DNA from: Takakia lepidozioides
Lineage: Eukaryota > Plantae > Bryophyta
Reading direction: 5' to 3'
DNA length: 64,000 nt
Assembly (NCBI GenBank): GCA_030704615.1
Contig: CM060732.1
Coordinates: 25,110,001 to 25,174,000, forward strand
The notes below the pieces were generated by a model. It searched no databases, was not told the DNA's origin, and was given only the letters and a program-made list of their open reading frames with translations. Shown piece by piece: positions 14,471 through 50,080 of this stretch (the first letter of the stretch is position 1; every line of letters begins with the position of its first letter). The position numbers and the translations under genes are program-made.

Positions 14471-14754
14471 AAGAGGAGGAGGAGATGAGACGAGGAGAAG
14501 CTCGCAACATTCTTGCGAGCTCGCCGTTCTTGGGAGAGTCAGCTTGGTCTTAGCAAGCCGTGTTTCAATCTCTGTCTACTCAGCTGCACCGTGGTGGTTC
14601 GATCTCATAGACCAATCCGACATTACCTGACTACAGACACAAGCAGCACACACAAGAGGTCCTTTTGGGTTTGATGGTCGGTCGAGTCATGACACAAGCT
14701 CAAGGACAATGCGGTGAGGGCACCTTCTTTTTTGACCTTTTTCAGCCTGTTTTG

Positions 14755-17341
14755 CCCTCTCACATCATGTTTGTGTGCATTGCAATGCTTGTGCAAGCCT
14801 GGCAGCCCTTGAGAAGGGCAAAGAGATGCATGGGGATGTCATCAAAGCTGGAATTGTACCTAATGTCATTCTAAACAGTCTCCTGTCCATTCCTTTATGC
14901 TTCATACCCCAGGACGGCCCAGAAACAGGAATTGTACCAGATGTCATCCTAAACTGACAGGTTTGTCAAATGTGGGTGCATTCAAGATGCGAAGGGAGTA
15001 TTCCACACTCTGACTGAACGAGATGTGGTATCGTGGAACGCGATGCTTGCAGGGGCAGGGGATGGAGGCTTTAGAGACCTATGAGCAAATGATGTGGGAA
15101 GGGTGAAGCCCGACCACATCAGGTTTGTGTTTGCAGTGTGTGTGCAAGCCTGGCAGCCCTAGAAAAGGGCAAAGAGGTGCATGGTTGCATCGCCAAAGCT
15201 GGAATTGTACCAGATGTGATTCCCTGTGGATCAATAGCTACAAGAAACCTGCATGGATAGATGGTCAACTAAAGGTTGCAGCTGCAGCGGCACAGTTGAT
15301 AAGACCCATGACCACAACTTTTGAAAGAGGATCAAGAGAGGGAGTCCACAATGCCTCTTCTGGCTGCACTTCTGGGCATGTGAAGATGCTTTGCGGTAGG
15401 CAGACTGATAGAGGCTCTACAGACTTTAGACCAATGAGGCATTTCAGCAGATTCAGGTACGTATGTCTGTCTCTTGCTTAAATGCATCAAGATGGAAGGT
15501 CTGGAAGCTGGAAAGCAGGAGCACACTTATATTATCCAAAGTGGATTCACACCAAATGTTTTTCTACTCAACACCTTAAGTACGGGAGCATCATGGATGC
15601 TCACCAAGTATTTAACAGAATGCCTCAACGATCTTTGATCACGTGGAATATAATGTTGGCAGGATTTACCAAGCATGAGTGTGGTAGGAATGCTTTGGAG
15701 ACCTATGAGCAAATGTTGCGCAAAGGGGTGAAGCCCAACACATTTGTTTGTGTTTGCAATGCATGTGCAAGCATGGGAACTCTGGAAAAGGGAAAAGAGA
15801 TCCATGGTGACATCGTCAACGCTGGAATTGTACCAGATGTCATTCTGAACACTACCCTGGTGGACATGTATGCCAAATGTGGGTGCATTAAGGATGAGAA
15901 GGGAATTTTCAACACTATGGCTGAACAATTTGTGGTGTCATGGAACGCGATGCTTGCAGGGTATGCACAGCAGGGACATGGTATGGAGGCTTTGGAGACC
16001 TATGATCGAATGATGGGGGAAGGGGTGAAGCCCACTAACCACATCATGTTTGTGTGCATTTGCAATGATTCTGCAAACCTGGCAGCCCTGGAAAAAGGCA
16101 AAGAGGTCCATGGTGACATTTTCAGAGTTGGATTGTACCCGATGTCATTATGAACAATATCCTGGTGGATATGTATACAAAATATGGGTGCATCGAGGAT
16201 GCAAAGGGAGTGTTCGACAGTATGGCTGAACAAGATATGGTGTCATGTAATGCCATGCTTGCAGGAGATGCACAGCAGGGGCGCGGGATGGAGGCCTTAG
16301 AGACCTATGATGGGGGAAGGGGTGAAGTGTAACCAGATCACGTTTGTGTGTGTTTGCAATGCTTGTGCAAGCTTGGCAGCCCTGGAAAAGGGCAAAGAAA
16401 TCCATGGTGACATCATCAAATCTGGAATTGCACCTGATGTCATTCTGAACACTGCCCTGGTGGACATGTATGCCAAATGTGGGTGCAGTGAGGATGCAAA
16501 GGGAGTGTTCGACAGTATGGCTGAACGACATGTGGTGTCGTGGAGTGTGATGATTGCAGGATATGCACAACAAGGGCGCGAGATGGAGGCTTTGGAGACC
16601 TAGGGGCAAATGACGAGGAGAAGCTGTTGAATGAATACTTTTCTAACCCAGTCAATGGTGGGACAATCGAGGCAAGAAGGTGAACGTCTGTTGGATTATA
16701 GAGAGTAGCAGATGCAATTGATCATAGGAACTAGTGTGATAAGTAGGGTTGGGGTGTTTGCTGGAACAATTCTAGGCTGTCATTGTCAGCTGCTAGCAGC
16801 AAGGCGGGGATGTATGCATGATTTGTGCAGAGGCATGGATAGCCGAAGGAGCAGGGATAGATTGTGGGTCCATATTCATCCAAGGCCGAATTTCATGCTC
16901 CAGATTACCTATAATTCGTTGTGGAAGGATAGGTACAAGAAACCTGCATGGATAGATGGTCAATTGGAAGCCACAGCACAGCGACACAATTGATCAAATC
17001 AGGCACTGTTAATCAAGGCACATTCTTCAACACATTTCACCTTGTTTTTCCCTCTTATCAAAATCGGCCCTCAATTTTCATTATGATTTGCAAGTTAGCT
17101 GGTTGAGTGAACCTTTGATAGTTTGGAGTGACTTTGACATGAAATTGCCAACCTGACAACAGGAAAGTATCCAAAAACAGGTAACAGAGATGAGGAGAAG
17201 TTGTGGAACTTTTTTGACCCTAGTCAATGGTGGGACAATCGAGGTTGATGAGTTGCAGGGATGTCTCTCCATCTCGCGAAGAATCGGGTGTGTGGTGACT
17301 GCCACACTGCCATCAAGTTTGTTTCGGAGTTGTTGGCCAAA
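14755..17341 (+). pseudogene. PLS-class PPR-DYW (organellar RNA editing factor) pseudogene
   Basis: About 300-bp repeated P-L-S triplets (WNAMLAGYAQQG, FVCVCNACASLAALEKGKEIHG, LVDMYAKCG) with frameshifts and stops. DYW remnant KNRVCGDCHTAIKFVSELLAK at about 17279-17341, cut off by an insertion. Confidence 0.85.
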
Positions 17342-18094
17342 TGTAGTCACTACTACGTTTAGGGGGGGGTTAGCGACGCTGGGACCCCGAGTGCGCCGGA
17401 CGCGCCGACCCCCCTGCGACTGCAGCGTCGCGTAGGCGCCCGGCCCGGGACTTGCGACGTCGGGGCATCACAACGCCGACGCTCGGACGACGTTGTGGCA
17501 TCTTGCGATGCCATGCCGTCGCCGGAAAGGGGCCTGACCCCATTCCCCCACCAACGCGTTGGGGGGGTTGCGACGCCTTGGCATGGCAACAATTCGCTGC
17601 GACGCCCCCGGGATGCTGCGACGTCGGGGAATCGCAACGAGATGTCGTGCGCATACACCTCGCTACACAACTACATCGCTGTCCAAACCACACAACATGT
17701 ATATACACACAAATCAGTCTACCACAATGATTAATAAAAACTAGACACCATCACTCATGCATTACGAGTCAAGCCAAGCACATCCCAAAAGCTATGGGGA
17801 ATCTGCACTACGCGCGCCATAGCTGATGCGGGAGGCTCAACTCGAGAGAGATGAGCCTCACCGCGCGTTCACCGTGAAGATAAGCCACGCCCAGGGGCCA
17901 ACAAATATCTTGACCCCTGGGTTGACACTTGGATCAAGCCCAAGTGTCATATATAAAAACTAGTTATTTATTGGCTAGTTTCATACTACTTGTAAACTTT
18001 ACTTGACAGCTGTCGTGCGCATACACCTCGCTACACAACTACATCGCTGTCCAAACCACACAACATGTACATACACACAAATCAGTCTACCACA
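17342..18094 (-). repeat. Probable 3' LTR of the DNMT3/PHD Gypsy element
   Basis: TGTAGT...ACCACA ends; adjacent polypurine tract (minus-strand AGTTAGAGGGGCG, 18097-18109); begins where the DYW homology stops. No partner LTR found. Confidence 0.5.
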
Positions 18095-18355
18095 ATCGCC
18101 CCTCTAACTGGTGGTTAGGTCGCTCTAACTCCAGATAGCTACAAGAGGTAATAGCCACAGCCTCACTAAGTCTTTTATCACTGTCCCTATTGTACTCAAA
18201 CTCCATAGACCAAGAGGCCGGGTACACGAGTAGCCCCATCGTTATTCGCCGTCTTGCAGTCTGTGAACTTGAGCCAGAGATCTAGTGTATTGGTCCCATA
18301 GTAGCTTGGCCTTGTGGTTCTTGTTAGTCTCCTATGGTTGTATCCATTGCCACTA

Positions 18356-18500
18356 TTAAATGCAGCGTGGACACAACCAATCCCCATCAGGAACCATATC
18401 AAGAGGTGGTGTCAAACATCCCATGTGCCAACCTCTTGAGCATCGATCACACACCAGCATGGTGGATGCCCCTCTGGCAGACCCACACAGCATGCACCGC
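18356..18500 (-). pseudogene. PHD finger at the end of the retroelement integrase
   Basis: CMLC..MLVCDRCSRGWHMGCLTPPLDMVPDGDWLCPRC is a complete C4HC3 pattern. Confidence 0.9.
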
Positions 18501-19929
18501 AAACCTGCAGGTACCACCGCCAAGTTTGGGTCAACCCTTCCATCAACATTTGGAAGGTGACATGACGCGCAATTTACGCACATGGTCCTTCCAAGTCATG
18601 CCATCCTGACCCTCCAAGATCATGACTCCTGAGGGCAACACCTCTCGAACCCTCAAAATAGTACGTCTTGTAGTCACATCCAGGGTCATAGGAGCAGTCT
18701 GCTGCAGATAAACATAGTCACCAGGGTTAAATCTCCGAACCCCATGACGATAGCCCCTTGCAATGGTAAGGTTCTCGAAAGCCATGGGCATGACTTTCTT
18801 GAACAACTCTGCACGCTGATCACATGCACGTGCCCACATGTCCGGATCATCAAGGTTGAGAACTACCCTCAAGCGCTCAAATACCACCTGAAGGTGTCTC
18901 TCATGCTCCTCCACCGTAGCACTAAAGATGATGATGTCATCTATGTAGCACCGAGCAAACTCTACCCCTGCTAGAATCCTGTCCATGACTCTCTGAAACT
19001 CTGCAGGAGTGTAAGAACCGCCACTGGTATAGGTAATCCTTCCCGTGCTCATTGATCCCCCAGAATGCCGTCTTCTACTTATCCGCCTCCTTGATCGGCA
19101 ACTGGTGATATCCGGATCGTAAATCCAAAGTGCTAAAGACCTTAGCATGCCCAATGGCATCAAAGATCTCCTATGGTGTTGGCATGGCATACCTATCGGA
19201 CTTGGTCTGACGATTTACAGGCCGGTAATCACCGCACATACGTCTCTCCGTCCAATTGCCATAGACATCTTTCTTGGCTGGCATCACTGTGGCTGAAGCA
19301 TATTCTCCTCCAAATAGCTCCACCAAACCAGCCTCCCAGAGGTCCTGAGTCCTCATCTGAATCAAGGACCTCTCCATGTCACTATATCTATAGGGTCTCC
19401 GAAAGATTGGCGTGTCAGTGGTCAATTCAATGCGACTCTCTTGACCCTTCAGTGCTCCCAAGTCCTTAAAACTGAAGGCAAAGCAGTTCCTGTAAGCCCT
19501 CAAGAACCGCCGTATACGTCATCTCTCTCCTCCGGTGACTATGGGTCCAACATCAGGCTCTCAGTTGTCCTCCGTGACTGCAACCTTGAGTCCAGCAGGC
19601 TTAGAGGTAGAACACGCGTCCCGTGGTTGCTATGCTGCAACCTCTTGAGCAGTAACCACTACTTGCTCTGTCAGTGACAATGCCTCATCCTGCCCCATCA
19701 TCTCATCCTTGATGACCTCCTCAACTCGAGAAAAATTCCCAACCTCATCCATCACCACCGCCTTGGCTGCCAACTCCTTCCGAACCTCGAGCATCTCCCA
19801 CGTGTGCTATGGATGCGGCCTGCACCTTGTGGTCCGCACCTGTTTGCCCCCACTCGCTGCCTGTACCGTCTCGGTAGGTAGAGAGACTATCAAGGGAAGT
19901 GTACTCCGTACTTTGCGCTGCTCAGCCAT

Positions 19930-20440
19930 AGCCAAGCTGATAATCCAGGTCAAGCAATTGAGATCCATTGCTTGCCCCAACACCTGACGACGTGATGCCT
20001 CAGAAGGAGATGGCACCGCCGTGGTACCAATGGTAAAACCCATCGCTCGCTCGTGCTTGTCAGCATTGGGCTCCACTAACTACTGCAACTGGCTATCCCA
20101 CAAGAGGCCAGGTCCACCATCTCGGAAAGCATGAGATCCTGGAAAGCTGAGCAGTGTAGGCAATGCTGCTCGTGGGTGACCCACCTTATTGACCACTGCC
20201 AAAGGTGCTCAATCATCGTGTCTCACACGCTGAGACTGCCTGCCTATGTCCAAATGCTATCCACCATCAGGTTTGGTGGCCGCTGCACCCCATCAAATGT
20301 ATGCTTGGTCCACCATAGTCGTGGGGATGAGCCCGTGACCCCACTGTAGCTGCATCCAGCAACACTGCTAAACCAAGCCAAGACCGCACTTGATGCACAC
20401 TGGCCATCACCTTGGCCCGAGAATCATCCAGCAATGGCAC
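19930..20440 (-). pseudogene. DNMT3-like methyltransferase domain, C-terminal half (motifs VIII-X)
   Basis: Continues in frame after ENVP once the insertion is removed: LDAATVGSRAH/PRLWWT (1-nt frameshift), then ERAMGF..SEASRRQVLGQAMDL, paralleling DNMT3 AHRARYFWGN and ERVFGF..RQRLLGRSW. Confidence 0.85.
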
Positions 20441-23400
20441 TGTCGCGCACCTCACTTCGGTAAACTCCCCTTCAAGTCATAGTTACTCGCTTTGATGCGC
20501 GCGCCTGACTCCCAACCTGGCCGCCGGGCCAACTTGGAGCTTCGGCTGCTCACCGGGACATAACGGTCCCCCTTCGCTCCCCCACTAAACCCTCCACCTA
20601 TTTGGGCCTAGTGGAATTCCCTTTGGTAGATGGCAGTCCGGAACAGCTCCCCACTCTTTGGTCGCTTTCCGGCACGCTCGCTCACTCACTAGTTTTTGGT
20701 CACCAACGGGCTTGCACCGTTCTCGGGGTTACTACTCCCTATATATACTTCTGTAGCTGTCCGCGGGGGTTTCACAACCAGCCATGCCATTTTATGGCGA
20801 ACCACCACGAAAACCATCGACTCCCGGTGATGAGTCGCGGTGAGTCTTGGCCCACTCATCACGGCCCCTATGGACCGTGATGAGTCCCAAGACTCCCCAC
20901 GACTCCCACCACGAGGTCTCCGCCCCCATGGTGAATCCTATGCCACCCCCACTAAGTTCCGCTAAGCTACCACCACCCCTTGTGGAGCCACCCCCACCGC
21001 AACCCGGTGTGCGGGGCTCCACCTAGTGAGCGCCTCCGCCTCCTTGAGTGCCTTGGGCACTCAAGGGTGCTTCAGCCCCCCATACCTACCGCTGCTGCTG
21101 CCCCCACCACAGGGGCAGCCCCTCATGTGTCCCGACCCCTTGCCCTCAAGGCAAAGGGCCGCGACACACACCCCTACCAACAGGGAGTCGATGTCCTCAT
21201 CGTCTTGTCCATTTTGTAGAAACGAACATCCAAGTTGTGGCGTCCCACATCAAGGAGTTTGTTTCCGTACCATGGCGTCCCATGGCAAAGAACCAAACCC
21301 CACACTTGACTCTACTCTCCACTAGCTAGTTCGGCCGACTTCCTCCAAGTCCCGGCCAAGGGTGGAGCCTCTCAAGCTCCTCCCAGTGCACTCTTCTTGG
21401 CCTACTTCAAGGCCAAGGAACGATCCTCCCCGAGGATCGAATCGCCTTACTGCAACAACATTGCTTGCGACCGCTCTTGATGCCGCTTTTGGCATCACCT
21501 TGAGCAAGGGTTCACCTGGAACCCTCTTTGACTAGGAAGATAACCTGGAACCAACCGTGCGCCCCAATCACTACAATTGGGTCCGCCTTGGAATGCTGGC
21601 CTGAGGTACGGGAACACGCCGAAGCCGCACTACGACTTCGTCCCGAGGCTACACGATTATAGTACGTGAACGGAAGCACGTAGCTTCCGCGTTAGCCCGC
21701 ACTACAAGGCAACCCTCTCGGTAGCGCAGTTATAGTACGCGCACGCGCCAGGTGCGCACTAGCACGTGAACTCCCAAAGAAGACACAAGTTTCCTTGCCC
21801 CTTGGATGGGGGTCACCCGATTTCGGCACTACGCAAACATACGATTAACCCAATTTACCTCTCCCACTTTTATAAGCTGGCATGCATTCTACACACTAGC
21901 CAACCATACCATGCATCAACATTCCAAACAAAATAGGACGCACAATATTTGGAAGCCATTTCATTTATAGCACGTTTTGTACAATACAAGTTTTTGCAAT
22001 CGGATTCCTAAGCTAGCTAAGCTGGGCTAAGCATGCATTTCCTCCCCCACGCTCCAAGGTTGATGTCCCCATCAATGCTTCTTCCGCTTTTGAGGTCACC
22101 CTTCGAAAACTGCAACCGCCTCGGATGCGTTTCCCATTTCTGAGGCACGCACCCAAGATGCCTCCACATGATGATAGCCCTTCCATTTGACGAGATACTC
22201 CGTTTCTCAGTTCTTGAACCTCCTCGACTTAAGTATTGCCTCCACCTCGTACTCAGGTTCATTTTCATGATCCAATAGCATAGGTGGCGGACGCAACACT
22301 TGATGCCGATTCGGACGCACTTCGTCTTTGAAGTAAGGCTTCAAAAGGGAGACATGGAATACTGGGTGCACCTTGCTGTTTGCCGGCAGCTCCAATTCAT
22401 ACACATCCTCATTCATAACCTTCCGAATGCGAAAGGGTCCCGCATACGGAGGTACGAACTTCGGACTCACTTCCGGAGGTAGTCGGAAATTCTTGATGTT
22501 CAACCAGACCTCCGTGCCTGCCTCAAACTTCACTTCCCTCCGCTTCCGATTCGCCTGCCTTTCATACCGTTTCCTAGCTTTGGCAATGTTGTACTTTGCG
22601 AGCTTCAACAAACGCTCGCGTTCTTTTAGTACCTCCGCTACTGCCGGTTCCTCAACGTCCTGGGCGGCCCAACTTGTCGGCACCAGAGGTGCTTTTCCAT
22701 AGACCAATACGAAAGGGGAAACTCCCGTTGCGGAGTGTTTTGTGTTATTATAACAGAACTCTGCCGCATCTAAGTGTTCCATCCAGTCTGATTGGTCTGC
22801 CGACACGTAATTCCGCAAGAATTGCTTCACTACGGAATTCACTCTTTCCGTTTGGCCGTCCGTCGTAGGTCGGAAGGCGGTGCTCATCTTCAGCCTCGTC
22901 CCCATCTTCTTCCAAAGTGTCCTCCAAAATTTACTGGTAAACTTTGGATCGCGGTCCGAGACAATATCCTTCGGGACTCCATGATGCTTTAAGACGTGGG
23001 CAAAGTAAAGTCGCCCTGTCTCCTGCGCCGTTGCCGTCTCCTTGGTGGGGATGAAATGGCCCATTTTACTGAACCTATCCACCACCACCATGATTGCATC
23101 GAATCTTTTTGACAGCGGCATAGCAGTCATGAAATCCATCGAGACGCTTTCCCAAGTCCCCTCTGGAATCGGCAAGGGTTGTAACAGCCCCGCTTGCTTT
23201 TTGTACTCGCTCCGGTTTTGTTGGCATGTGGTGCATGTCTTGACATACTCCTCTGCCTCCTCCCTCAGTTTGGGCCAGAAATACTCTTTCTTCAAGAGTG
23301 CCGCAGTGCGCTTGGCTCCGCCGTGGCCCGCAAGCGGGCTATCATGGCATTCTCTTAAGAGACTATCCCTGATCCCTCCCTTCGGCACGTAGAGACGCTT

Positions 23401-26400
23401 TTGCTTATACCGGAGCAGTCCATTTTGCAAGTGGAACTGCGATTTAACCCCCATCCTCAAGTCATGCATCACGGACTTTGCAAGCTCATCCTTCCGGCAA
23501 GCCTTCCGGATCTTCCTTTGGAGCGCCGTCTCGCCCCTGTGCACTAACAAGAGCTACTGCTTTCTACTTAAAGCATCGGCTACCACGTTGTCTCGTCCCG
23601 GTTTGTACTGGATATCCACGTCAAACACTGCCAAAGTATCTTGCCACCTAAGTTGTTTTGGGGACAACTTGGGCTGCGTGGCAAAATACTTCACCGTGAC
23701 ATTGTCCGTGAACACCTTCACTGGGTTGGAACCAACATAGTGGCGCCAGAGCTCAAGGCAATGCACCACCGCCTTCATCTCTTTTTCGTGTGTCGGCCAC
23801 CGTCGCTCCACTTCATTCAGTTTCTTACTTTCGTAAGCCACTGGACGTCCATCTTGCATAAGTACACCCCCAATCGCGAAGTCCGATGCATCTGTATGAA
23901 TCTCAAACGGACGATCGAACTCGGGGATTTTCAAGACTGGAGCTTCCGCCATCCACTGCTTCAATTCAGCAAAAGCTTGGCCACAAAAAGTGTTCCATGC
24001 CCAGACTTTGGATTTACACAGAAGGTCGGACAGCGGCCCCGCGATCTTGGCGAAATTTCTCACATACTTCCGGTAATAGGAGGCGAGTCCTAGGAAGGAT
24101 CGCACTCCCGGGACCGAAGTCGGAGGCTCCCAGTCCAAGATCGCCCTCACCTTTCTGTCATCCATTTTGATCCCATCCTGTGTAATCACATGCCCCAAGA
24201 ACTCCACTTTCGTGACCCCGAATTCGCACTTTGAAGCTTTGGCGTACAGCTTCCCTTCCCGCAATTTTGGGAATACCCTTTTGAGGTGCTCCAGGTGCTC
24301 CTCCTTTGTTTTCGAGTACACCAAGATGTCGTCGATGTACACGATCACAAAGTCATCCAACCACTCCTGAAAAAGGCTGTTCATTAGCGTGCTAAAGGTC
24401 GCGGGTGCATTGGTGAGCCCAAAAGGCATCATCAAAAACTCGTATGAACCATACCTTGTCCTGCACGCGGTCTTCTCCTCATCTCCTTCCGCCACTCGAA
24501 TTTGATGATAGCCGGAGCGCAGATCGATCCGGCTGAAATACTTCGCTCCTGCCAACCGATCAAAAAAGGTCGTCGATCATTGGCAAAGGGTACCGATTTT
24601 TGATAGTCACCTTATTTAGAGCCCTGTAGTCGACACACATCCGCAGCGTCCCATCCTTTTTATCTGCAAATAGCACCGGGGCTCCGTAAGGTGACTTACT
24701 CGGCCGGATGTACCCCTTTGACATTAGATCTTTGAGCTGAGTCTTCAGCTCGACCAACTCTCTGTGGCTCAACCGGTAGGGCGCCTTGGCAGGCGGTTCC
24801 GATCCTGGTATCACCTCAATCTTGTGGTCAACTCCTCTTCGCGGTGGCAAGCCGCTTGGCAAATCCTCCGGCATCACATCATGGTATTTCTCCAAAATCC
24901 CCTTGATCCAATCTGGGCTCGGCTCTCCATCGCCTTCTCCCTTCACTTCCCTAATGTAGAGCAAAAACTGGGGCTCGTGTGCCTCCTCCACGGCCCACTC
25001 CCTCTGATAGAAGGTTTATTCGCCCTCCCACGGGTTTGGGCGTTTCCGAAACTCGTAAGACCTCGCCACCATTCCAACATGGCAGCGTGACTACCCTCTT
25101 GCGGCCATCTATGACCGCTCCAGATTTGCTCAAAAAGGTCATCCCCAAAATGAGATCCACTCCATCAATCTCGCAGACTGTGAAGTTCTCACGTCCCTCC
25201 CAACTCCCCAGTTGAAGAGGAACATCGAACGCCAACCTCGTCGCCAATTGCGGTTCTCCTTTGGCAAAACGCACCTCAATAGAGGCCCCTACGTAAGTTG
25301 TCGGGAGTCCCAGCTTTTGTGCCGTTGCCGATGTCATGAAGGAGTGCGACGCTCCTGTGTCCACCAACAATGACACGTTAGTTCCGGATATTATCCCATC
25401 CACGAACAATAAGTGACTCCCTTTATGCAATGCGCTAGTTTCCTGATACAACTCACAAGAATATTTGCCTACCTTGCAAGTCCTGGCGACCACCGCTTCC
25501 ACCAAGCGACTGATGGTATCTTCCGACAGTTCTGTGGTCGCCCGAGTCATGTTCAATTGCCGGGGCTTCGTGCACTTCTTGGCCATGTGCCCGGGCTCCC
25601 CACAATTGAAACACACTCCATCAAAGGTTGCCTTCTGTCCGCCATAGGCCGCTCCACCCGCTTTTCCTTTTGAAGCACCGGGTGCCGCCTTGACTTGTGA
25701 TGGCCCTCCCTTTGATTTCCACATGCTGTTGTCGCCGCGTGGCCTATCCCACTTCTTTTCCGGTCGGAAGGAGTCACCTTCCCGCCGGGTCTTCTTGTGG
25801 TTCAGCTCCGTACGGCCTTGTCTTTCACCCCTAGGGACATCTGAGAAACATTCAGCCCTCTCAATTGCCTCGTTCAAAGTCTTAGGTGGCTTCTCCTCCA
25901 ACTTCCGCCTGGCCCATGGGGCCAACCCCGCCACAAAGTTGAAGACCATTTCTGGTTCCGCCATATCCGCGACTTCGAGCAACAGCACATTGAAAGCCTG
26001 GACATATCCCCGAATGTCATCTGTTTGCTTCAAATTCCTCATCTTGTCCCGGGCAAGCCAGGACGCATTAAGGGGCACAAACTGTCTATTCATCAATTCC
26101 TTGAACCCATTCCAGTTCAAGGTTTCCGGACTTGGACCTCGGTCGTGAAGGCGTTTCTGCCACCATTGTTGAGCATAGCCCTTCAAATAGGTGGGAGCCA
26201 CTTCCACCCGATCCTCGTCACTCAACTTGGCCGCCCGGAAGTACTGCTCTAGCTCCAGGAGCCAGGTGTTGAGTGCCTTCCGATTTCGGACGCCCTCGAA
26301 GGTGCCGGGTTCCTTAGGCTTCACCTTAAACTTTGCCTTAGTGGAAGTGGCATTAGCCGCCTTCAACACGTCTTTCAACGTCCCGCCAAACTGCGCCAAC

Positions 26401-27415
26401 AACCCTTCCCAAAAGGCTGCCGGCATGGGAGGCATCTCTTGGTTTGTCGGAGCTCTCAAGGATTCCTCGGGCTCCGACTCCTCGGATTCCTCCCGCTCTT
26501 GAGCGGCCTCGTTTTCGGAAACATGCATCGCTTCCTCAAACGGCCGCCTCGGTGACACGTCGCCCCCATCGGGCTCACCAGGATCATCATCTTTTGGGCC
26601 GTTCCGCTTTCGCTTTGGCTTGCCCGACCCCATGATGAGGCCAATCCCAAGGACGATCGCGTACTGAACTCTAAGCTCTGATACCAAGTGTCGCGCACCT
26701 CACTTCGGTAAACTCCCCTTCAAGTCATAGTTACTCGCTTTGATGCGCGCGCCTGACTCCCAACCTGGCCGCCGGGCCAACTTGGAGCTTCGGCTGCTCA
26801 CCAGGACATAACGGTCCCCCTTCGCTCCCCCACTAAACCCTCCACCTATTTGGGCCTAGTGGAATTCCCTTTGGTAGATGGCAGTCCGGAACAGCTCCCC
26901 ACTCTTTGGTCGCTTTCCGGCACGCTCACTCACTCACTAGTTTTTGGTCACCAACGGGCTTGCACCGTTCTCGGGGTTACTACTCCCTATATATACTTCT
27001 GTAGCTGTCCGCGGGGGTTTCACAACCAGCCATGCCATTTTATGGCGAACCACCACGAAAACCCTCGACTCCCGGTGATGAGTCGCGGTGAGTCTTGGCC
27101 CACTCATCACGGCCCCTATGGACCGTGATGAGTCCCAAGACTCCCCACGACTCCCACCACGAGGTCTCCGCCCCCATGGTGAGTCCTATGCCACCCCCAC
27201 TAAGTCCCGCTAAGCTACCACCACCTCTTGTGGAGCCACCCCCACCGCAACCCGGTGTGCGGGGCTCCACCTAGTGAGCGCCTCCGCCTCCTTGAATGCC
27301 TTGGGGCACTCAAGGGTGCTTCAGCCCCCCATACCTACCGCTGCCGCTGCCCCCACCACAGGGGCAGCCCCTCATGTGTCCCGACCCCCTGCCCTCAAGG
27401 CAAAGGGTCGCGACA
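20441..27415 (-). mobile_element. Full-length chromovirus (Ty3/Gypsy) with disabled ORFs
   Basis: LTRs 20441-21166 and 26689-27415 (TG..CA, about 11 differences by eye), TSD GGCAC (20436-20440 / 27416-27420), tRNA-iMet PBS TGGTATCAGAGC 26675-26686, PPT 21167-21178. Confidence 0.97.
22068..26687 (-). pseudogene. Chromovirus gag-pol: gag, CCHC, protease, RT, RNase H, integrase, chromodomain
   Basis: CFNCGEPGHMAKKC, LVDTGAS, YIDD, HTDASD, HDSPLAGH..CTTC, GPF, EYEVEAIL..YLVKWKGY..SW. Two frameshifts (about 24995 and 24560) and in-frame stops at 23554 and 22207. Confidence 0.93.
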
Positions 27416-27420
27416 GGCAC

Positions 27421-27909
27421 ATTCTCCAAGATATATGCGGGGGAGTCTATCTGCTGAAGCTGTAAATAGCGCAGGACCCTCAACATCTCCCAAAACAGGC
27501 GTGACCTTGAGTCTTGTAATCCATTGCCATGCCCGGCTGATGAGTGCCCTTGGCAGGGCCAACCTGCCACTACCAAGTGAATAAGGCCAACCCGCTCCAA
27601 ATCATGCGCCCCCAGCAAAGAGATGTCTGCTGGCAAGGCTTGTTGGTATCCACGAACTGCAGACACTGGCAACAAATCATGGTACTGCTGCACCAACTGA
27701 GCAACATGGTGCAGTGAGATGCGTCGTGAAGTCTCATCCCTCTCCACATACAGATAACGTCGAACTTGTACACCTGCTTGCAGTACTGCAGCCAATGCAG
27801 TGCTGATCCCGCCAAACAAGTCCAGAAGGCATATGCCTTCATCCGGGCACTGCCATACAAGAGGTGTGGTGTCCAATGGTGACAACTGAGGTGGTCCTGG
27901 TGCAATCAC
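27421..27909 (-). pseudogene. DNMT3-like C5 cytosine methyltransferase domain, N-terminal half (motifs I-VI)
   Basis: LLDLFGGI (I), YVERD (II), DI (III), VAGWPCQG (IV, catalytic PC), SRLFWE (V), ILENVP (VI). Confidence 0.9.
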
Positions 27910-30900
27910 TGCACTCTCCTCCTCTCCTGACAGTACAAAGGCCTCTACCCAGGCTTATTGCACCCGTCTATCAGCAGCCTGCTGCAAATCCTTGTTCGTA
28001 CCCCACAATGGAGTGTGAGCAACCATGGCAGACAACTCCGCCATACCATGCATGTCATCTTGCTTTGCTGGAGATGGCACATCCTCTACATGGGCATTGC
28101 CCTCCAGCAACTCTCCAGGCCAACTAACTGCAGCTGTGAAAGCTGCTAGTGTTGGCATCTTGCCCCGCTGGGTAGCAGCAACACCCCCAATGAATGTCAT
28201 AGGGAGCTGTACACGACGACCATCACCTGACTGCCATCCAGGCCTATAGGATGCTGACTCCTCCCAAAAATCCAGGGTGAAGCCCATGGGATATAACACT
28301 GCCCCACCAACGAGGACATCGTAAGAGACCGCATCTGTCACAATGGCCTTGGCTCACATCACTGAGCCATCTATAGGATGATCCGGTTGTAGTCTAATGG
28401 CCAACTCACGCCGTGTCATGCCCCAAGCCCGCTCTGATCCTCCCAGAGATGTCTGTATCTGGAAAAGACAAGGCTCCATATCCGCCTCCATGAGGCCCAA
28501 ACCTGCAATAGCAGCTCTGCCCAACATCAATGACTGAGCTCCCGAGTCCAACAAGACCCGCAGTGGCCGGTACGTCTTGCCTGCCGGTCCACTCAAAGAG
28601 AAAATGTCATCCTGGTTGTCTAACAAGACAACTTCATGTGTCACCATGGCGCGCTCAAAGGCTGGCCTAGCTGGTAGTTCCGTCAACCTGACAGCTGCAA
28701 CTTGCCATGGCGCAGCCGTGACAGCCTTGACCCTCAAATCCAAGGATCCCTCTACCACTACACCTTCCACTAACTCCGCAGAAGATGAAGTGACATCCCC
28801 ACTCTCACAGAGTGTTGCTGTTAGTCTGAGTACTGCAGCTGGTCTTACCCCCGACGTTGCAATCATGGTTGCCGAGAACAGTGGGGCCTGACACACCGAG
28901 GTGGCCACCCCCAACAGCACACTGGCTGCACTAGCCTTGGCAGCAGGTGTCGGCGCTGCATGTGTAGCTCTCCCCAATGGCACAATAACCTATGCCTCGG
29001 TATCCGTGGGGCGAGAACTAGGTGCCATGGATGGCGTCGACACTGTCTCCGCCAAGATGAATGATTGAGGCAACCTAGCTTGACGGCTTGCCTCCCCACG
29101 CTGTGGATCCAACTCCACCTCTACACCTCATGGCTCAGGAACTCGTGCTGCTCCTCGAGTGACGGCTGCAGCAGACTCCACCTGCACTAGTGGTAGTGCT
29201 GCCCCACACATAAATCTCATGCCTCCCATGTCTCTTCCGTCAGGATGACGCTACTGAGGAGGAACAAGAGGTGGACCCTCAGGTCTTGGAGCTGGTACCA
29301 CCTGAGCTGTGGCCATGGCAGCAAGCCTTTGCTCTAGTTGCTGAAGCCGGTTGGCCATGCCTTGGTCAACGCCCTGACCTCCACGTCCTTGACCATACTG
29401 TGCTTGCCCTCGTCCTGCACCTCATGCCTGACCACCTCGTCCTCTCTGAGGTGCTCCACCTTGCCCTCGGCCACCATTTTTCTCTTGGAACTGGCCTCGC
29501 CGCAACTCAGGATGCAAGTCATAACATTGGGCATCTCTATGCTCATACTTGCTACAATGCCCACACTGCAACTGTGCAGGCTGTGCTTGTGCCGGCCCTT
29601 TGCCACTCTCTGGGCAATCTTTCTTGACATAGGATCTTCTACATGTCCAACATACCACCCCTGGTTGCTGTTGGCCTGCAAAAGATGCTACTGGCCTCTG
29701 CACCTGAGGTCCCCTGTAAGCTCCATAGAATTTGGGTTGGGCAACCTTGCCCCCCTGACCACGCTGTTGGGCAGTCCCTTGTGCCTATTGGCTGACAGCT
29801 GCGCCTCGTGCAGACATGTCCTTGCCAAATCCAATGGTAATAACTTGCTCCTCCACCATGTTGAGCTCAATCCGCTCAGCCAGCAGAAACACATCTGCTA
29901 ATGTGGGTTGGGCCGCTTGTAACAGGGTTGCATCCCGCACCCTTCTCCTGAGCTCCTTGTCCAAAATTCCATACCAGAACTGGACTGCCTGAGCTTCAGT
30001 AACCCCTTGGGTCACACTTATCAAGCGCCTCATACGAGTGTAGGCCTCTTGCAAGCTTTCACTGGATTTGCGCTAGAAGTCTTGCAAACTTCGCAGTTTC
30101 TCTGTCCGTACGCCTTGATAGTTCCTCCGCAACTCCTGGAAGAACTCCACCACCGGGTTGAATTTAGGTACATATGTTGTAGTCATGGCAGGAGGAGTAG
30201 TAGCACCTTTTGAACTGGTACCACCTGCAGAAGTACCGGTACTACTTGTTCCACTACTAGTGCTGGTAGTGGGACATATTGGTGCTGATGCAGCTACTGG
30301 TCGCGTCGTGCCTCGAGTAATAGAGACGTAGTCAGGTGACCAATACATCCTCCACTCCTCAATCTCTGCTTCATGTCCTCGCCTGAACTCGTGGTAATCG
30401 TCCATAGGCGGGTCTTCCAAATGCTGGAACAGTCCCTTCCACACCATGAATGGGGTGAACACCTGTGGATTGCGCAGCTACTGCAAATCACACCAGCTGT
30501 CGAACTCCTGGATAAAGTCATCCAGCTCGATTGTGCCCACAGCTCCAGAGTACCTACGAGGCCCCTTGGTAGCTCCATACACCTCCTCCATGTCGTCCCA
30601 CAATAATGGCGAAGAAAACTGCATACCTGTTGATGAAACCTCCGAGTCTGTGTCAGACTCTACACTAGTTGAGAGTGGAGGTGAAGGTGGTCTAAACCGA
30701 ACACCTCGTCTTGTGACCCCACTCTCACTTCTACTGCCTGTAGCCGTACTCCCCTCAAAACCCTTGGGTAACTCCGTGATGACACTCACAACCCGCACCT
30801 CCCCCACGTGACACTATAAGGCTCTAGTACTAATTCTAATAGTGATACGGTGGGGCACCTGTTGCAGTTTAAGGGTCATATCCCAGTGGCTCAGGGCACC

Positions 30901-31495
30901 TGCACCTGCATCCACCGCAAGAACTCCTATGGTTGGCTGGTCATCAACCCAGTCTCACCATAGAAGAAACACTGGTGGTTTTGCTGGTCATCACTCCAGC
31001 CTCACCACCGACAGCATACTCTAGGATTGACCGGTGATCAAATCCGGCCTAATCCCTATGAAAGCAAGCGCCCACACAAAACCAACATGGCGCACAGTCA
31101 AGCATGCAGGTATTGGGGGGGATCCAAACACAAGAAATCAAAACATCAACACCCCCACACCAAAATCCCTCCGCAATACTGCTCCTGCAGAATACCCCAG
31201 CCCTGGACTGACTCTTGCCTCCACCTATGGAAAGGTTTTGGCCTATCGAGAGGGTGGAAAGCTATGGGGAGGAGAGACTAAAGCAATTCCTAAACCCGGC
31301 ATGCCCTCATCCCGACACTCTCCATTTCCTCTCTAGCCATACACTAATGTCAAAGAGTGACAGGTGTGTTACAAATAGAAAGTTAAGTGATCATCCCTGA
31401 CTTACCAATGACTTTGAATTGTGCAAGTATTTCCATCCTTCATGTCCCTTAAAGAAAATATCGTCAGGGCCGAATTTTTGCGTTGACAAATTGTT

Positions 31496-34400
31496 CTAGG
31501 CCGCATGAAACCATGAACAAATTTGAGAATCTTTTTGCATCATAACTTTTGCTTCATATAGGTACATATGAGGTGGCACTGAAGGTAAGACCCAATGATC
31601 CCCACTGGAATAACCCAAAAAGTGCGATTGCATTTTGTGCTGCTCAATGTGGTAACGTACCAGAAAACAAGCAGCGTAGTATACCCCACAGCCCATGACA
31701 ATACTTGCTACCTCCTTGGTCTTGGTATAAATGAATCCATGTACAACTTGGAAGGCAATTAATTCCTTCAACATGGTACTTGCCTCATGCCAGTACTACG
31801 CAAAGTGATGATCCTCAATGGATCGATTGTTTGGAAGAACCTTAGTTCTAGTTGCCACTGGCAGCCAAATGCGCATGATTTGATAGTAATGTGCCAATGA
31901 TTGCGGAGGACTAAATTCTTTCCAAGCCAAATCCAACACAATGGGAATTTGGTTGAAGGGCATAATCATAGCCCTACTGTACTCCCTTGCAGCTGGAGTT
32001 TTAGGTGGGTTAAAAGCAGCATTCCCCCATACCTCAGGCTGTGGTGTGGTTGTAGTAACAACAGGGTCAGCTCTTGGCATAGTGACTTGTTGTGGTGTTG
32101 GTGGCACTGGCTCTTGTACCATTGGCATCTCCTGCACCTCCTGTGAAGAAGACTGAAAAGCCAAAGTTCTCGCTTTTAAATAAGAAGCCATTAGCTGTTC
32201 CTCAGGTACACAGACTCTGTTGTCGATATTTGAAGTGAGGTCCTCCACTTGAGTCTGCAGTCCGTCTACATCCTCCTGTAACTCCGCTATTCTACTATAG
32301 ACATTGTCTATAGTAGTTGTGGCAATGTTCTGCACTTGCAGTCTGAGCTCATTTATCTCGCTTTGGGTGAGCTTTCGTGGTGTTTTGCCCTCCACTGGCC
32401 CTTGTGCTAACCAGACCTGCATAAGGTGGTTATCCACTAAGTTGCTTGTGGTACCTCTGAGAGTTTGCTCCTCTCTGAGTTTGTACATATCTAACTGCTG
32501 TTGTAAAGCCTCCATGCGCTTTGCATGAGGTTCAACCAAATTCGCATAGGCAGCAAACAGATTATTGGTTTCCTTCCAAGCCTTGTTAGTGACAGAGATT
32601 TCATTTCTATTGGCCATGATTATTTGTTGCAACTCCAGTATGTGTCTCTCTTGGTCAACTTCAACCTGTCTGTATTGCTTGAAAGTATCCTCATTGCGAC
32701 AGATTGTATTCTTCATATCGACAATGAGTTTCACTTGCTCAACATTTTCTCCCTCTGCCTTCGTACATCTTTCCGCTTGACTGTTTATTTCTGTTGTAGA
32801 TTGGTCAAGCATAGTTGTGAGTGTAGCACATTGGATGGCCATCCTGTCATGCAATGTCTGCAACTCCGTATGTAGTGCATTCACTTGTTGCAACTTGCTT
32901 TCATGCTTCACTTGCATTTGGTATAGATGTTGCTTATGTGCTTCGTGCAACTGGTCTTGCGCGAGGCCTGCCTCAATCAATTGTTCCTTGGCCAATTGCA
33001 AAGCCGCTTCTGTACTCTCCAAGTCTGGCTGCATCTTGAGAGTGACCTCTTCATCGACCTTATTTGCACACTCTGTGGCAAGTCGAGCCTCAAACTCCTT
33101 CCTGAGTTCCTCCCTCAAAGCTGCCAATTGAGTAGTGGGAACATGTGATTTGACATAAGTACCCAACAAATTAAGTGTCTTGTTTATGGAACTCATAAGC
33201 ATCGCTTGTTGAGGGTCATCTTGGTGAGCTTGCTGCTATTCTCCCTGATCCTCAACATTGTGATGCCTTACGAACCACTCAGGCCATTGCCCCACCAGAT
33301 TTTCTTCCTGAACCACTCCATCCGTCACTAGTGCTGCAGTGTCTTGGCATTCTTCCTGTGGTACCTCCGTCACAGGTGTGTGTATTATATGCGCCGCAGG
33401 GTTTCCCCTGGACAACCGTGGCACCTCCGGAATCATTGTGTCCTTGACCATACCAGAATATTCATAGAGAAGGTCCCCCTTCTCAATTTCTGCCACCACC
33501 TGTTCTGTAGTGGGAATATCTAACCATTCTTTTTCTAAATCAATTATTTCTGGTTGAACTGCATGGACAACTTGTGGTAACTTTGTGACAAGCCGATCAT
33601 CTGGCTGTGATGGCTGTGATACTGAAGTAACTTCCTCTTCCCTCTCTGAAGGTCCTGCTTCCAGTAATAGCAGTTCTATGTGCTGCTGTGCCCCTTCCTG
33701 CACAAGAGCTTGGGAAACATTATCATGTGGATTCCGTGAAGCCAGTGGATCCGCCACTACAGTCTTTCCCCGTCTCTGTCTCTTAGTCTCGGGTTGCCCT
33801 GCCAGTCCACCCTCACTGTGTGAAGAGCCTTGCTCTTCCATTGCAGTGGTTTCTGGCTCAAACACTCCCATCTCCTTTCTTTCTCGCGCATCAAGTATGC
33901 CAGAATCAAGAATTATTTGAGCAATGATTGGGCCAGACACTATGATAGGAGACTTTGCGGCAGTACCCTGTAATCTTTTCATCTCCTCTACCAGTGCGTT
34001 GTACATTATGTCCGCCCATTCTACCTCTTCTCCTCTCAGGGCTTTGAGTATTTCTTCTGTGAAGGATATGCTCAAATACTGTTGGTTCTGTTTCATGGCA
34101 AACAGAACGTTCAATACCTGGCCTACCTCCCTTAGCCCTGGGTACACGGCCTTGGTACAAGCATAACCCTGAGTTTTAAAGAAACTCCCTTCTTGGAATA
34201 AGTCCCCTATTTGCAGTCTTGCCCTGTGCTCCTCCACATGCACCTGGCCTGCTGGCAATCGAAACAATTGCTGTAGGTATAGGGGAGTAATTAGTAATTC
34301 AACTCCCTTCACCGTTGTTGCTCCTGTCCTTGGCTCAAAGTTCTGCAAGAATTGTAACATGTACTGTCTATGGTGCAATGTCCAATCTTTGCTTTGCAAT

Positions 34401-35014
34401 CCTTCCAATCGCAGCTCTTTCAGTAACTTCACCGCCTGTGGAGTAGCAATCGTTTGTTTCTGCAGTATTGTGGTGCTCTTCACCCTGATTTCTTCCATTC
34501 CTCTCACTCTCTTCATTCTAGACACACAGAAATATTTTGGCTGTAACAATTGAAGAAATGCCTATAATGCACAAAGCATAAACGTATGGTTGCCACAAAA
34601 AGCTATGGGTAATTTCTTGTAATCCTCCGGGGCTTGCAAGCATCGATCAAGAGAAAAAATCCGTTCTGTTCTTTCGTCCCTATGCCACTGCGTAAGTAAT
34701 ATTGCAAGCGTATAGTCTGTTAGTTCCTCCATAGCTTCAAAGCTATCGCATTGATGGTTTGTCCCGTCGCGACGCCCGTTACTTAGAACGACGCCGACTC
34801 TTGCGCTTAATTTCCCTCCAATTTCTTGATCCCTTCTCTGGCTTTCGATTGGCTGTAACCGCTGTGACTGGATTTTAGATTTAATTTTCTTTAGTGGACT
34901 TTCCCTGCTGGACTGTCCACTAGGATAACACATGTGACAAGAATTTCGCTTTTCTGTACTTGTTGTTTGTTCTGTTGCCCCTTTTCTGTATTCATTAATG
35001 GGCCCGCCATTCAT
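31496..35014 (-). pseudogene. Extra 3' ORF of about 1170 codons: plant-transposon-type N-terminal domain, acidic linker, coiled coil
   Basis: ORFs 34562-35014, 33236-34549, 31796-33202 and 31496-31774 share one frame and are separated only by TAG stops; copy 3 has Gln at the first stop. Confidence 0.75.
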
Positions 35015-35224
35015 CCAAATTGACGCGCTGATTAGGTATTTTGACGTCTTGTCCTCTTTCTTGATGAGATCTGTTCTTGCACTTCCTTCTCAGCTGTGTG
35101 TTGCGCCCTGACTTCCACGTGTCCCTTTCTAAACTGACTTCCGTCCTTTCTTCCGCCGGCCATTTCCCTGAAGTTATCCTACGTCCACCTGTCACTGATT
35201 CTATGGATTGTGTAACCCTAGTAG

Positions 35225-35430
35225 GCTGTATTAAGCTGTGACAGGCTGTGTCATACTGTGGTATGCCGTGATAGGTTGTGATACACTGTGGTAAGTTGTG
35301 ATAGGCTGTGACACGCTGGGGTAGGTTGTGATATGCTCTGTCGCGCCTTGATGGGCTGTGATAGGCTGTGTCGTGCCTTGATGGGCTGTGATAGGCTGTG
35401 TCGCGCCTTGATGGGCTGTGATAGGCTGTG
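35225..35430. repeat. GGCTGTGATA-based 10/30-bp tandem repeat; related runs at 42410-42650 and 40684-40805
   Basis: Direct reading; translates as RDTAYHSPS repeats in the integrase tail. Confidence 0.9.
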
Positions 35431-37995
35431 TCGCGCTTGTTCTGCCCGCCCCGGTCATATATGCTCGGCCTAGCGACAAGTGCTCCATATTCCGTTGGTA
35501 ACACTGGCGCAGCCCGTGACGGCTTTTGCGTTTCAACATGCAAATCATGCTGTAATGGTTTGTCATGGATACCACTGTACCCCTTCAACTTATTGGCATT
35601 GACTCTTCCCAACATTTCTTTGTTAATGGTTTGTAACATGGCGGTGTTGTTATCATACATCTTTTGTATGACATAAGGTCCTTTCCATGGTGATTTAAGC
35701 TTAGAAGCTTTAATCTTTCCCTTCTTCTGCAACCATAGAACCAAATTTCCCGTTTTAAAAGTCTTTAACTTGCCTTCATTAAACTGTTCCTTCCTCTTCA
35801 TCTGAATTCTGGTCATATTATCAGCTGCATCAGCACGTACTTCTTCCACATGGTATAATTTATGTGTCCTGACCTTAATGGAATCTTGCAATTCCATTCT
35901 CTTTCCCCATTCCGTTCTCATGGTAGGTAACAGGAATTCCACTGGAAGTAAAGCTTCCATACCATAAACTAATTAGAATGGTGTATACTTAGTGGTGACT
36001 TTATATGAAGTCATGTATGACCACAAAGCTGTCAGCAGCTTTGTATCCCAATCCGTTTTGTTTGCATTGACTATCTTAGCCAAGATAATACATAGTATTT
36101 TGTTGGTAGCCTCTGCCTGCCCATTACCCTGTGGGTAATATGTTGTACTCTTCCTATGCACAATCATGAACTCTTTAGTCAATAATTCAATGGTCTCATT
36201 AATGAAGTGACTTCCCTGATCACTGATAAATTCCAAGGGACAGCCAAATCGTGTAAGTATGTTCTCATACATGAACCTTGTTGTGGACTTGGCTGTGTTG
36301 TCCCTCAAAGCTTTAGCTTCCACCCACTCCATAGTATAATCAGTGGCTGTAATTATGTACTTGTTCTGTGTATTCTTGGCTGGTGGGTTAATTGGTCCAA
36401 CAAAGTCTAGTCCCCATTTCTGAAATGGTTCGGTAGGCATTGTAGGATGCAAAGCCATCTTCCCAGATCTCTGCAAAGGTCCTAGCCTCTGACATTCATC
36501 ACAACTCTGACAATACTTGTGTACATCTTTGAACAAAGTAGGCCACCAGAAACCTGCATGTAGTATTTTCCTGCTGGTAGTCTCTTCTCCAAAATGACCT
36601 CCTGCCACTCATTTATGAACTTCCTCCAAAACTTTATTAACTTCATGGTGGTATAAGCATCGCTTCAGCACTCCATCTGGTCCTAGCTTATACATTTTGC
36701 TCCCTACCATAGTGTAAGGTAGAGCCTTGATAGCAATTCTCTTTCTCTGCTCCTTTCCATAACTTGGTGGGTACTGACCATGAGCAAGGTAGTATCTGAT
36801 TGGCCACTGCCAATCTAACCAGTCATCTGCACTTCCCTGCACCTTCACTGCAAATAGACTCGCATCTAGTAATTGATCATCTACTCCCGTGGCTGGTTCT
36901 CCTGTTGATAACCGTGACAAGTGATCCGCCACAAGATGCAGCCTCCCAGGCTTGTAAACAACCTCGAACTCAAACTCGTGCAAGATTATCAACCATTATC
37001 AGATGTTTGTTTACCAGGTATATCAGAGCCTAGTGATCCACATAGAACATAAACTTCTTGCCCAACAGGTAATGCCTGAATTTCTTCACTGCATAGATCA
37101 TTGCCAATGCTTCTCTTTCCGTTGTGCTATAATTTCTTTCGGCATTGTTCATCAATCGGCTAGCATAGTACACAGGTGAATCTATCCTTCCTGTTACATT
37201 TTGGGCTAACACTGCTCCTAGTGCTTCTCCAGAAGCATCACAGTGAACATGAAATATTTCCTGCCAGTGAGGACTAATCAGCACAGATGTAGTTGTTACT
37301 GACAATGTAAGTTCCTCAAAAGCCTGTTGACATTCAGGTGTCCATGCAAACACTGGATCTTTCTTCAAAAGTTTGCTCAATGGTGCTGCTATCTGTGCAT
37401 ACCGTCTGAAAAATCTTCTGTAATAGCTTGTTTGTCCAAGGAATCTCCTTAGACTCTTAACATTCACTGGTGGTGGAGAGGCTTTCATGGCCTCTGTTTT
37501 CCTGGGATCCACAAGAAGTCCCCTCTTACACACAATGTGTCCCAGAAACACCCCTGAGTTCACACATAAAGTACACTTCTTTGGATTCAGGCCTAGACCT
37601 CTCATCCTGCATCAGGCCAGACATAACTCCAATTTATGCAAGTGCTCATTCTTAGAGCTGTACACACTGAAATCATCCAAGAATACCTGCATGAAATCAT
37701 CCAGATAATCATGAAAAGATTCACTTATCACTCTCTGAAAGGTCGCTGGTGCATTACAAAGTCCAAAGGGCATGACTTTGTATGCATAAGCACCCAAGTC
37801 TGTGATGAAAGCCGTCTTTCCCTGGTCTTCTTCTGCCACTTGCACTTGATTATAACCATTGAAGCCATCCATGAATGAGTACATCTCATGGCCTGCCACA
37901 GTGTCTAATACTGCTTCTGTGAATGGCAAAGGGAAAGGATCTTTCTTCGTACAAGCATTCAGCTTCTTGTAGTTCACACAAACTCTTAGTCTTAA

Positions 37996-50022: not shown

Positions 50023-50080
50023 CTCCTCCTTCCCTCCTTAAATTGAAATAATGAAGCATTGATGGCACCCCTATCCCAAG

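Follow-up and report, generated by a model that had tools for sequence, protein, structure and literature searches.

The closest described counterparts of the element reported here, a DNMT3-bearing Ty3/Gypsy-type retrotransposon in a 64,000 bp segment of the Takakia lepidozioides genome (GenBank assembly GCA_030704615.1, contig CM060732.1, forward-strand positions 25,110,001–25,174,000; hereafter the window, numbered from its first base), come from algae. KnitGypsy-Dnmt3 of Klebsormidium nitens (de Mendoza et al. 2018, PMC5890265) is a Gypsy element with an intronless, unrearranged DNMT3, DIRS-like A-coding-B-A-B repeats and purifying selection on the DNMT, all of which it shares with the present family. 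It differs in its algal as opposed to land-plant host and in having the DNMT in the same open reading frame (ORF) as the reverse transcriptase (RT) and RNase H (RH), whereas the present family ends its Gag ORF at a conserved stop; the likeness noted here is one of domain content and repeat plan. The accessible portions of that account make no mention of a PHD finger, a 4 bp target-site duplication (TSD), a palindromic junction or a self-priming signal. SymbioDIRS-Dnmt3 of Symbiodinium, from the same study, also has a DNMT3 within a retroelement, split direct repeats and two domain orders per family, and its domains were reported to methylate CG de novo in yeast (PMC5890265), but it carries a tyrosine recombinase instead of a DDE integrase (INT) and an unrelated RT.

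Three further systems are similar in part. The host DNMT3s of non-flowering plants (PpDNMT3a/b; Yaari et al. 2019, PMC6453930) have the same unrearranged catalytic domain but are reported to carry DUF3444 and are not embedded in gag-pol. The EpiLTRs of Cymbomonas and Euglena (bioRxiv 10.64898/2026.05.21.726589) are long terminal repeat (LTR) elements with a cytosine methyltransferase (MTase) and a chromatin reader, but their DNMT is described as sister to DNMT4 and accompanied by a DAM domain and a chromodomain, whereas the present family has a DNMT3-type domain and a PHD finger, with no DAM domain seen. The Phygy and Selgy non-chromoviruses (Neumann et al. 2019, PMC6317226) are, likewise, short Gypsy elements of mosses and clubmosses without a chromodomain; the accessible text mentions no methyltransferase in them, and the NCGN target preference given for Phygy is seen in none of eight TSDs here. 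According to a 2019 review, land plants have no methylase-encoding transposons (PMC6338049). The sections available of two later papers that cite the 2018 work name Gypsy-DNMT3 elements for streptophytes alone, though their supplements could include bryophyte sequences (PMC12344493, bioRxiv 10.64898/2026.05.21.726589), and the accessible parts of three others list host methyltransferases only (PMC5784723, PMC10952607, PMC9477723). The preliminary description of the window, made from its sequence alone, knew of no detailed account from embryophytes; we too found no description of a DNMT3-bearing Gypsy element in land plants in a literature search that excluded most subscription journals and repeat databases. 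What these DNMTs do for retrotransposons has been difficult to establish, as dinoflagellates and Klebsormidium, the known hosts, do not lend themselves to experiment.

Sequence comparisons show that the window contains a decayed copy of a bryophyte-wide Ty3/Gypsy-type element whose ORF1 encodes Gag, Cys/His knuckles, protease (PR) and DNMT3 and ends at a conserved, likely leaky stop, so that the DNMT would probably be packed at Gag-like numbers and would likely methylate the cDNA before insertion.

A DNMT3-type domain split by a nested chromovirus

The two parts of the methyltransferase domain lie on either side of a younger insertion:

20441–27415, minus strand: nested chromovirus, LTRs 20441–21166 and 26689–27415, gag-PR-RT-RH-INT-chromodomain
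20436–20440: left copy of the GGCAC duplication (flank comparison)
27416–27420: right copy of the GGCAC duplication (flank comparison)
27421–27837, minus strand: DNMT3-type domain, motifs I, IV (catalytic PC) and VI (ENV); this half is free of stops and 76% identical to Marchantia ORFs, best PDB matches DNMT3A
19942–20435, minus strand: DNMT3-type domain, motifs VIII, IX and X; frameshift in motif VIII, ~25-nt deletion, two stops

The inner element is 6,975 bp long with termini TG...CA and an LTR pair of 727 bp at 98.5% identity, and the GGCAC duplication flanks it directly. Pfam searches identify gag, PR, RT, RH and INT, and a chromodomain (PF00385, 33.1 bits against a cut-off of 25.1) after the integrase, which together with the LTR pair and TSD marks it as a chromovirus. 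A tRNA-Met-type primer binding site (PBS) was read by eye, and the element carries stops.

Read on the minus strand, the frame of the outer element runs ...AYILENVP as far as the chromovirus and LLDDSRAK... beyond it. The intact Marchantia protein P0005 aligns as far as residue 1021 at position 27412 and resumes with residue 1018 at 20443. In sequencing runs of the same organism, 29 contigs (run X1) and two contigs (run X5) depart from the window at 20440 and continue as 27421 onward, and unsplit copies are therefore present in the same host. The proposal in the preliminary description that the chromovirus and one GGCAC copy interrupt an MTase is thus borne out by collinear intact relatives and by the unsplit read junction; all of the C5-MTase motifs it listed are found on the minus strand, and the position it gave for the domain, between protease and RT, is the same in relatives.

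Several comparisons identify the domain, as far as sequence and modelling can, as a C5 cytosine methyltransferase of the DNMT3 type, closer to DNMT3 than to DRM, DNMT1/CMT, DNMT2 or bacterial MTases. The segment 27421–27951 (minus strand) by itself matches PF00145 at 35.3 bits, above the curated cut-off of 22, which answers the profile check suggested in the preliminary description; its nearest solved structures are DNMT3A/B, and PF00145 is matched in all seven relatives tried (32–46 bits). A profile built from 11 relatives has 56 PDB matches, led by DNMT3A (69–76 bits, best 75.9) and followed by DNMT3C/B (60–67), DRM (34–43) and HaeIII/HhaI (25–28). The structure predicted for the intact relative P0001 (52-row alignment, pLDDT 92) has only DNMT3 proteins among its top Foldseek matches, DNMT3A/B being the best (E = 7e-19, TM score 0.84 by target). 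The motifs follow the linear order I-IV-VI-VIII-IX-X, with the catalytic PC and ENV present and motif VIII frameshifted in the window copy; this is not the permuted order of DRM, and the domain is therefore not a DRM.

The domain is also well conserved. All six motifs are present in 41 of the 63 long PR-DNMT proteins, PC in 52 and an ENV-type motif in all 63. Between the window DNMT half and seven close loci the nonsynonymous divergence (dN) is 0.21–0.27 and the proportion of synonymous differences (pS) 0.70–0.77, which is saturated; an eighth locus, L062, gives a dN of 0.54. For comparison, the dN of the window RT against relatives is 0.10–0.16. These values indicate long purifying selection on the DNMT. 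That the domain persists because it binds DNA or RNA, with little catalytic role, seems improbable: such a reading accords with the inactivity of the Klebsormidium domain in yeast (PMC5890265), but the S-adenosylmethionine-binding and catalytic motifs are retained across bryophyte and algal copies.

Distribution of the family in bryophytes and green algae

A first protein search returned 46 proteins, and every one with an organism name is from Marchantia polymorpha, Calypogeia fissa or Sphagnum; a cluster of closely similar proteins includes Sphagnum members. Metagenome loci (L numbers) were taken as the best 80 of 97, 62 of them distinct at 98%, and having been picked through their DNMT they cannot reveal DNMT-less members. 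Where the locus is long enough to tell, PR precedes the DNMT in 55 of 61 and RT follows it in 50 of 56, and the full series gag-PR-DNMT-RT-RH-INT-PHD is present in order in 15 of the 80. By predicted domain content the same Gag-PR-DNMT-RT-RH-INT-PHD element is present in Marchantia, Calypogeia and Sphagnum. HMMER recovers 269 clusters at 50% identity with E values up to 1e-30. Host read depth stays within the same order of magnitude from gag through PR and DNMT to RT, a weak hint that most copies carry the DNMT, and across the family it is 3e5–1e6 as compared with 4e3 in the least covered bin, values that are depth and not copy number.

These comparisons bear directly on whether the locus arose by a single capture of a host DNMT3 cDNA, or from domains brought together by chance through nesting or misassembly. 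The window copy is indeed fragmented and without matched ends, but all seven domains occur in the same order in the 15 loci and in the named Marchantia, Calypogeia and Sphagnum proteins, with the DNMT at the same place in relatives generally, and the unsplit junction is present in reads; we take the shared order and the junction to refute this explanation, which we rate as extremely improbable. In addition, Pfam searches of the window proteins and the relatives tested find no DUF3444, the domain reported in plant host DNMT3s (PMC6453930).

Quick trees were built for the DNMT (83 domains left from 206 by thinning, together with the window; element domains only) and for the RT (39 rows with three DNMT-less RTs as outgroup, too few to prove a single origin). 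The window falls within a seven-row clade of the DNMT tree with Marchantia, Calypogeia and a Sphagnum-type sequence (SH-aLRT 99), and within a seven-row clade of the RT tree with Marchantia and four loci (SH-aLRT 100). Of the trees proposed in the preliminary description, these two thus give the bryophyte grouping, and its suggestion that the lineage sits in a bryophyte-like host agrees with the family's presence in named bryophyte genomes; the PPR (pentatricopeptide) repeats, the 5S rRNA gene and the nearest named relatives, all bryophytes, are indirect signs that make the land-plant host it assumed likely. Within the DNMT clade the Sphagnum-type row joins Marchantia (support 90), and since the order departs from the host tree, both old paralogues and transfer among bryophytes are possible; the saturation of synonymous sites speaks against recent exchange of the element between mosses and this host.

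A further protein search extended to the chlorophytes Haematococcus, Chromochloris and Cymbomonas. Their Gypsy elements (proteins P0108 and P0259 of Haematococcus, P0131 and P0137 of Chromochloris, P0152 of Cymbomonas) carry a related DNMT, placed after RNase H and before integrase, and end in a PHD finger; the order RT-RH-DNMT-INT-PHD is found in 46 proteins, and the chlorophyte elements form their own clade in both trees. The protein-search and cluster matches include no Klebsormidium-named protein and no named host DNMT3.

Marchantia polymorpha is a genetic model to which five DNA methyltransferases have been ascribed (PMC5784723). It has no fewer than four ORF1 copies that are open, contain all six motifs and are annotated as hypothetical proteins (Mp_4g09160, Mp_Vg00370, Mp_5g06330 and Mp_5g06860). 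Two open ORF1 copies, P0215 and P0216 (Mp_Vg00370 and Mp_Vg00540), bear Marchantia V-chromosome gene names. The intact Marchantia ORFs would allow direct tests of enzyme activity, of its sequence context and of methylation of the cDNA, and the family may confound DNMT counts in bryophyte genomes.

Organization and state of the outer element

The outer element has the following parts, in the direction of its transcription:

17643–31200, minus strand: dead outer element, DNMT3-bearing and of Ty3/Gypsy type; 3' end set at 17643 and 5' end probably somewhere near 31200–31362, from collinearity with relatives (tblastn/tblastx), end structure and read depth
29500–30735, minus strand: Gag-like, with a pair of Cys/His knuckle motifs, at the start of ORF1; blocks of 60–77% identity to relatives
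28180–28710, minus strand: aspartic protease (LLDSGA); Pfam match below cut-off (E = 0.012), 52–53% identity to locus L060
19630–19632, minus strand: conserved in-frame TAG followed by CAA CCA, end of ORF1 (Gag-PR-DNMT), in the shared frame of the DNMT tail and RT
18867–19582, minus strand: reverse transcriptase through YIDD, cut by an internal deletion; PF00078 at 30.3 bits on the YIDD piece, 69–73% identity to L060
18863–18867, minus strand: junction of a copy-specific deletion of ~1.8 kb (RT end, RNase H, integrase core); L060 6026–7840 is without counterpart, and other contigs leave the window at 18864/18868
18576–18863, minus strand: integrase C-terminal remnant, 68–69% identity to L060
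18362–18496, minus strand: PHD finger at the integrase end; PF00628 at 46.9 bits, cut-off 24

The family has the gag-PR-RT-RH-INT order of Ty3/Gypsy, RH and the integrase core being deleted in the window copy. No Pfam gag family is matched in the outer element of the window; in relatives zf-CCHC is above cut-off (P0178) and Retrotrans_gag is weak (P0215, E = 0.005), and the protease of P0245 matches Asp_protease_2 above cut-off. A Toxin_16 match in the gag region (E = 0.04) is below cut-off and was taken as chance.

The preliminary description placed the element at 17342–31373, and this extent has to be revised: these ends have no LTR pair and no shared flank duplication, the family 3' end is at 17643, and 17342–17642 is a separate GC-rich piece. 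No LTR pair for the outer element was found within the window. Family-level read depth falls near 31200, and a candidate 5' A repeat starting with TGTCA at 31362 is no better than shuffles when compared with moss A (z 0.1) or A2 (z 1.3). The window copy is likely recombinant or truncated on its 5' side.

It was rightly described as dead. There are nine stops in the frame 30735–27421 and eight in 20253–19012, one of the latter being the conserved stop, so that 16 are premature; these, the frameshifts in DNMT motif VIII and in RT, the 1.8-kb deletion and the nested chromovirus disabled it. At 203 places the window has T where X1 reads have C, or A where they have G, as against 107 places with the opposite change, an excess that fits the expected decay of methylated DNA.

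A conserved stop between DNMT and RT

The position matching the in-frame TAG is a stop in 59 of 60 loci (41 TAG, 18 TAA, 1 TAC), the next codon is CAA in all 60 and the one after it CCC in 57, over 25 distinct contexts. Consistent with this, predicted ORF1 proteins from many clusters stop 70–162 residues past motif X (44 of 45 listed). A few more distant relatives (P0245–P0247) have a single ORF, as is reported for Klebsormidium (PMC5890265). UAG followed by CAR-YYA is a known leaky context. The stop means that the DNMT closes the Gag ORF and that RT likely requires readthrough, and we suggest that ORF1 encodes Gag-knuckle-PR-DNMT and that Pol is likely made by stop readthrough. The earlier placement of the DNMT inside a polyprotein is correct insofar as it shares a frame with RT, but the conserved stop at 19632–19630 separates the two. 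A literature search found no paper joining CARYYA, readthrough and retrotransposons.

Split-repeat ends, integration and priming

The 3' side of the window copy consists of a polypurine tract (PPT) and three repeat segments:

18097–18109, minus strand: PPT immediately ahead of B1; same layout in relatives
18011–18096, minus strand: repeat B1, 86 bp, ends CA; one difference from B2, 74–76% alike to B of relatives
18004–18015: B1/A2 junction, palindrome GACA-GC-TGTC; same in L023 and L060, variants in L036, L056 and L071
17729–18008, minus strand: segment A2, 280 bp; no matching A1 at this copy's 5' end, weak likeness to moss-type A (z 3.1, below the best shuffle)
17643–17728, minus strand: repeat B2, its CA at 17643 being the element 3' end (end structure, comparison with relatives)

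In relatives the plan is TG-A (~340 bp)-coding-PPT-B (~115 bp)-GC-A-B-CA, complete in L036, L056 and L060, while L023, L071 and the window (PPT-B1-A2-B2) have its 3' part. Paired identical LTRs, one at each end, are absent from the family, which has A-coding-B-A-B or A-coding-B instead; it is Gypsy-like by its enzymes and not a canonical LTR element by its structure. LTR-pair finders would likely miss it because of these split repeats, and our literature search found no paper on split-repeat Gypsy elements. Ten loci have both ends, with termini TG...CA, and eight of them have a perfect 4-bp TSD (one more matches at 3 of 4 positions and one is unclear). The A-coding-B forms were considered as products of one-LTR circles, but L025 (A...B) has the same flanks as L070/L071 (A...B-A-B), so collapse or B-by-B recombination explains the short form.

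The A2/B2 joint combines the PBS-side end of A with the PPT-side start of B. The LTR would then correspond to B+A, and the integrated form would be a circular permutation of a two-LTR cDNA, opened by the integrase at the inner palindrome; retroviral integrases have been reported to cut palindromic circle junctions (PMC1180852, PMC1905944). No TGG-type tRNA PBS is found behind A1 of relatives. The 20 nt behind A1 are complementary to a stretch inside A over 9–17 bases in 13 of 21 loci (control maximum 8), and this stretch is mostly just past a TATA-like box. Priming would thus likely resemble the self-priming of Tf1 rather than that by tRNA.

The repeats raise the question as to whether the DNMT serves the chemistry of the ends, binding or methylating the B/A palindrome (which holds CAG/CTG) or an RNA/DNA intermediate and so choosing the junction that the integrase opens. 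Split repeats and a DNMT3 occur together in Klebsormidium (PMC5890265), in SymbioDIRS-Dnmt3 and in the present family. Just one of the two possible permutations is seen, the other being found in 0 of 23 loci. Nonetheless, split repeats also occur in DIRS-like elements without a cytosine MTase, and we consider this role distinctly unlikely.

Proposed role of the methyltransferase

In the mechanism we favour, readthrough of UAG-CAA would give a rarer RT-RH-INT-PHD fusion, and the protease would release the DNMT inside the particle. There the DNMT would methylate cytosines of the cDNA, at CG as for SymbioDIRS-Dnmt3 and possibly at CHH as for the moss PpDNMT3b. If the cDNA is methylated, a new copy would arrive resembling old host heterochromatin. 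The PHD finger would steer the integrase to a chromatin state. The preliminary description likewise proposed that the element may methylate its own cDNA or its insertion site.

Several observations weigh against this scheme. The KnitGypsy-Dnmt3 domain gave no methylation in yeast, a result that its authors call inconclusive (PMC5890265). The observed/expected (O/E) ratio of CG in the element is 0.41–0.56, a depletion no stronger than in neighbouring DNMT-less elements (0.34–0.42); since these are not set apart, CG/CHG depletion was rejected as a mark of a DNMT element. In moss-type loci, though not in the window copy, an ATG lies two codons past the stop, and re-initiation or a shorter transcript might take the place of readthrough. 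The mirror form A-B-A-coding-B is found in none of the 23 loci with a 5' A, though a symmetric two-LTR circle should yield it, and the complementarity taken as a self-priming signal coincides with one arm of a hairpin within A and is not seen in the window. The window copy also has no TSD and no matching A1. Finally, both trees are quick ones, without bootstrap and without host DNMT3, DRM or Klebsormidium sequences.

The DNMT could instead act mainly in trans, with the Gag-PR-DNMT product methylating the chromatin of the host, competing elements or genomic copies of the element itself and so limiting copy number or damage. Its ORF1 position would imply far more enzyme than one cDNA needs, several open ORF1 copies are kept in Marchantia, and self-limitation has been raised for the algal elements (PMC5890265); the fusion behind Gag and protease, however, points to the particle, and the read depth of the family in this host (again depth, not copy number) indicates high abundance. 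On balance, action in trans seems rather unlikely.

Returning to methylation of the cDNA within the particle, a broader form of this reading, which we regard as no more than a tentative possibility, is that a DNMT3+PHD lineage as old as the green plants has been shuffled into two domain orders and persists in land plants as an integrase element combining self-priming, a palindrome-opened circle and an active DNMT3 made at Gag stoichiometry via a leaky stop. Its insertions would be born methylated, and it would be an unrecognised mobile source of de novo methylation in bryophyte methylomes.

Neighbouring features of the window

The 17342–17642 piece is GC-rich and ~300 bp long, with a CACTA start at 17348, short subterminal repeats and a CG O/E of 1.21 (not depleted); it is distinct from the DNMT element and may be one end of a CACTA-type transposon. 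To its left, at 14700–17340 (plus strand), are decayed PPR gene pieces (PF13041, with PLS- and DYW-like motifs by eye), the DYW-like motif just left of 17342 having no Pfam match. Their X1 depth of 5e5–1.4e6 equals that of retrotransposons and suggests either that the PPR family has expanded enormously or that a mobile element carries PPR sequences.

On the other side, 31796–44000 contains more Gypsy-like elements in inverted and direct arrangement. ORFs at 31796–35972 and 41543–42592 have no Pfam match above cut-off, and a 30-bp tandem repeat is present at 35196–35555 and 42413–42772. A young Gypsy element at 45435–56323 has LTRs that are long and nearly identical; of its two open ORFs, one (1274 aa) encodes gag-PR-RT-RH and the other (754 aa) includes integrase. 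A 5S rRNA gene (61883–62001, minus strand, 98.5 bits) lies near a 500-N assembly gap at 61040–61539.

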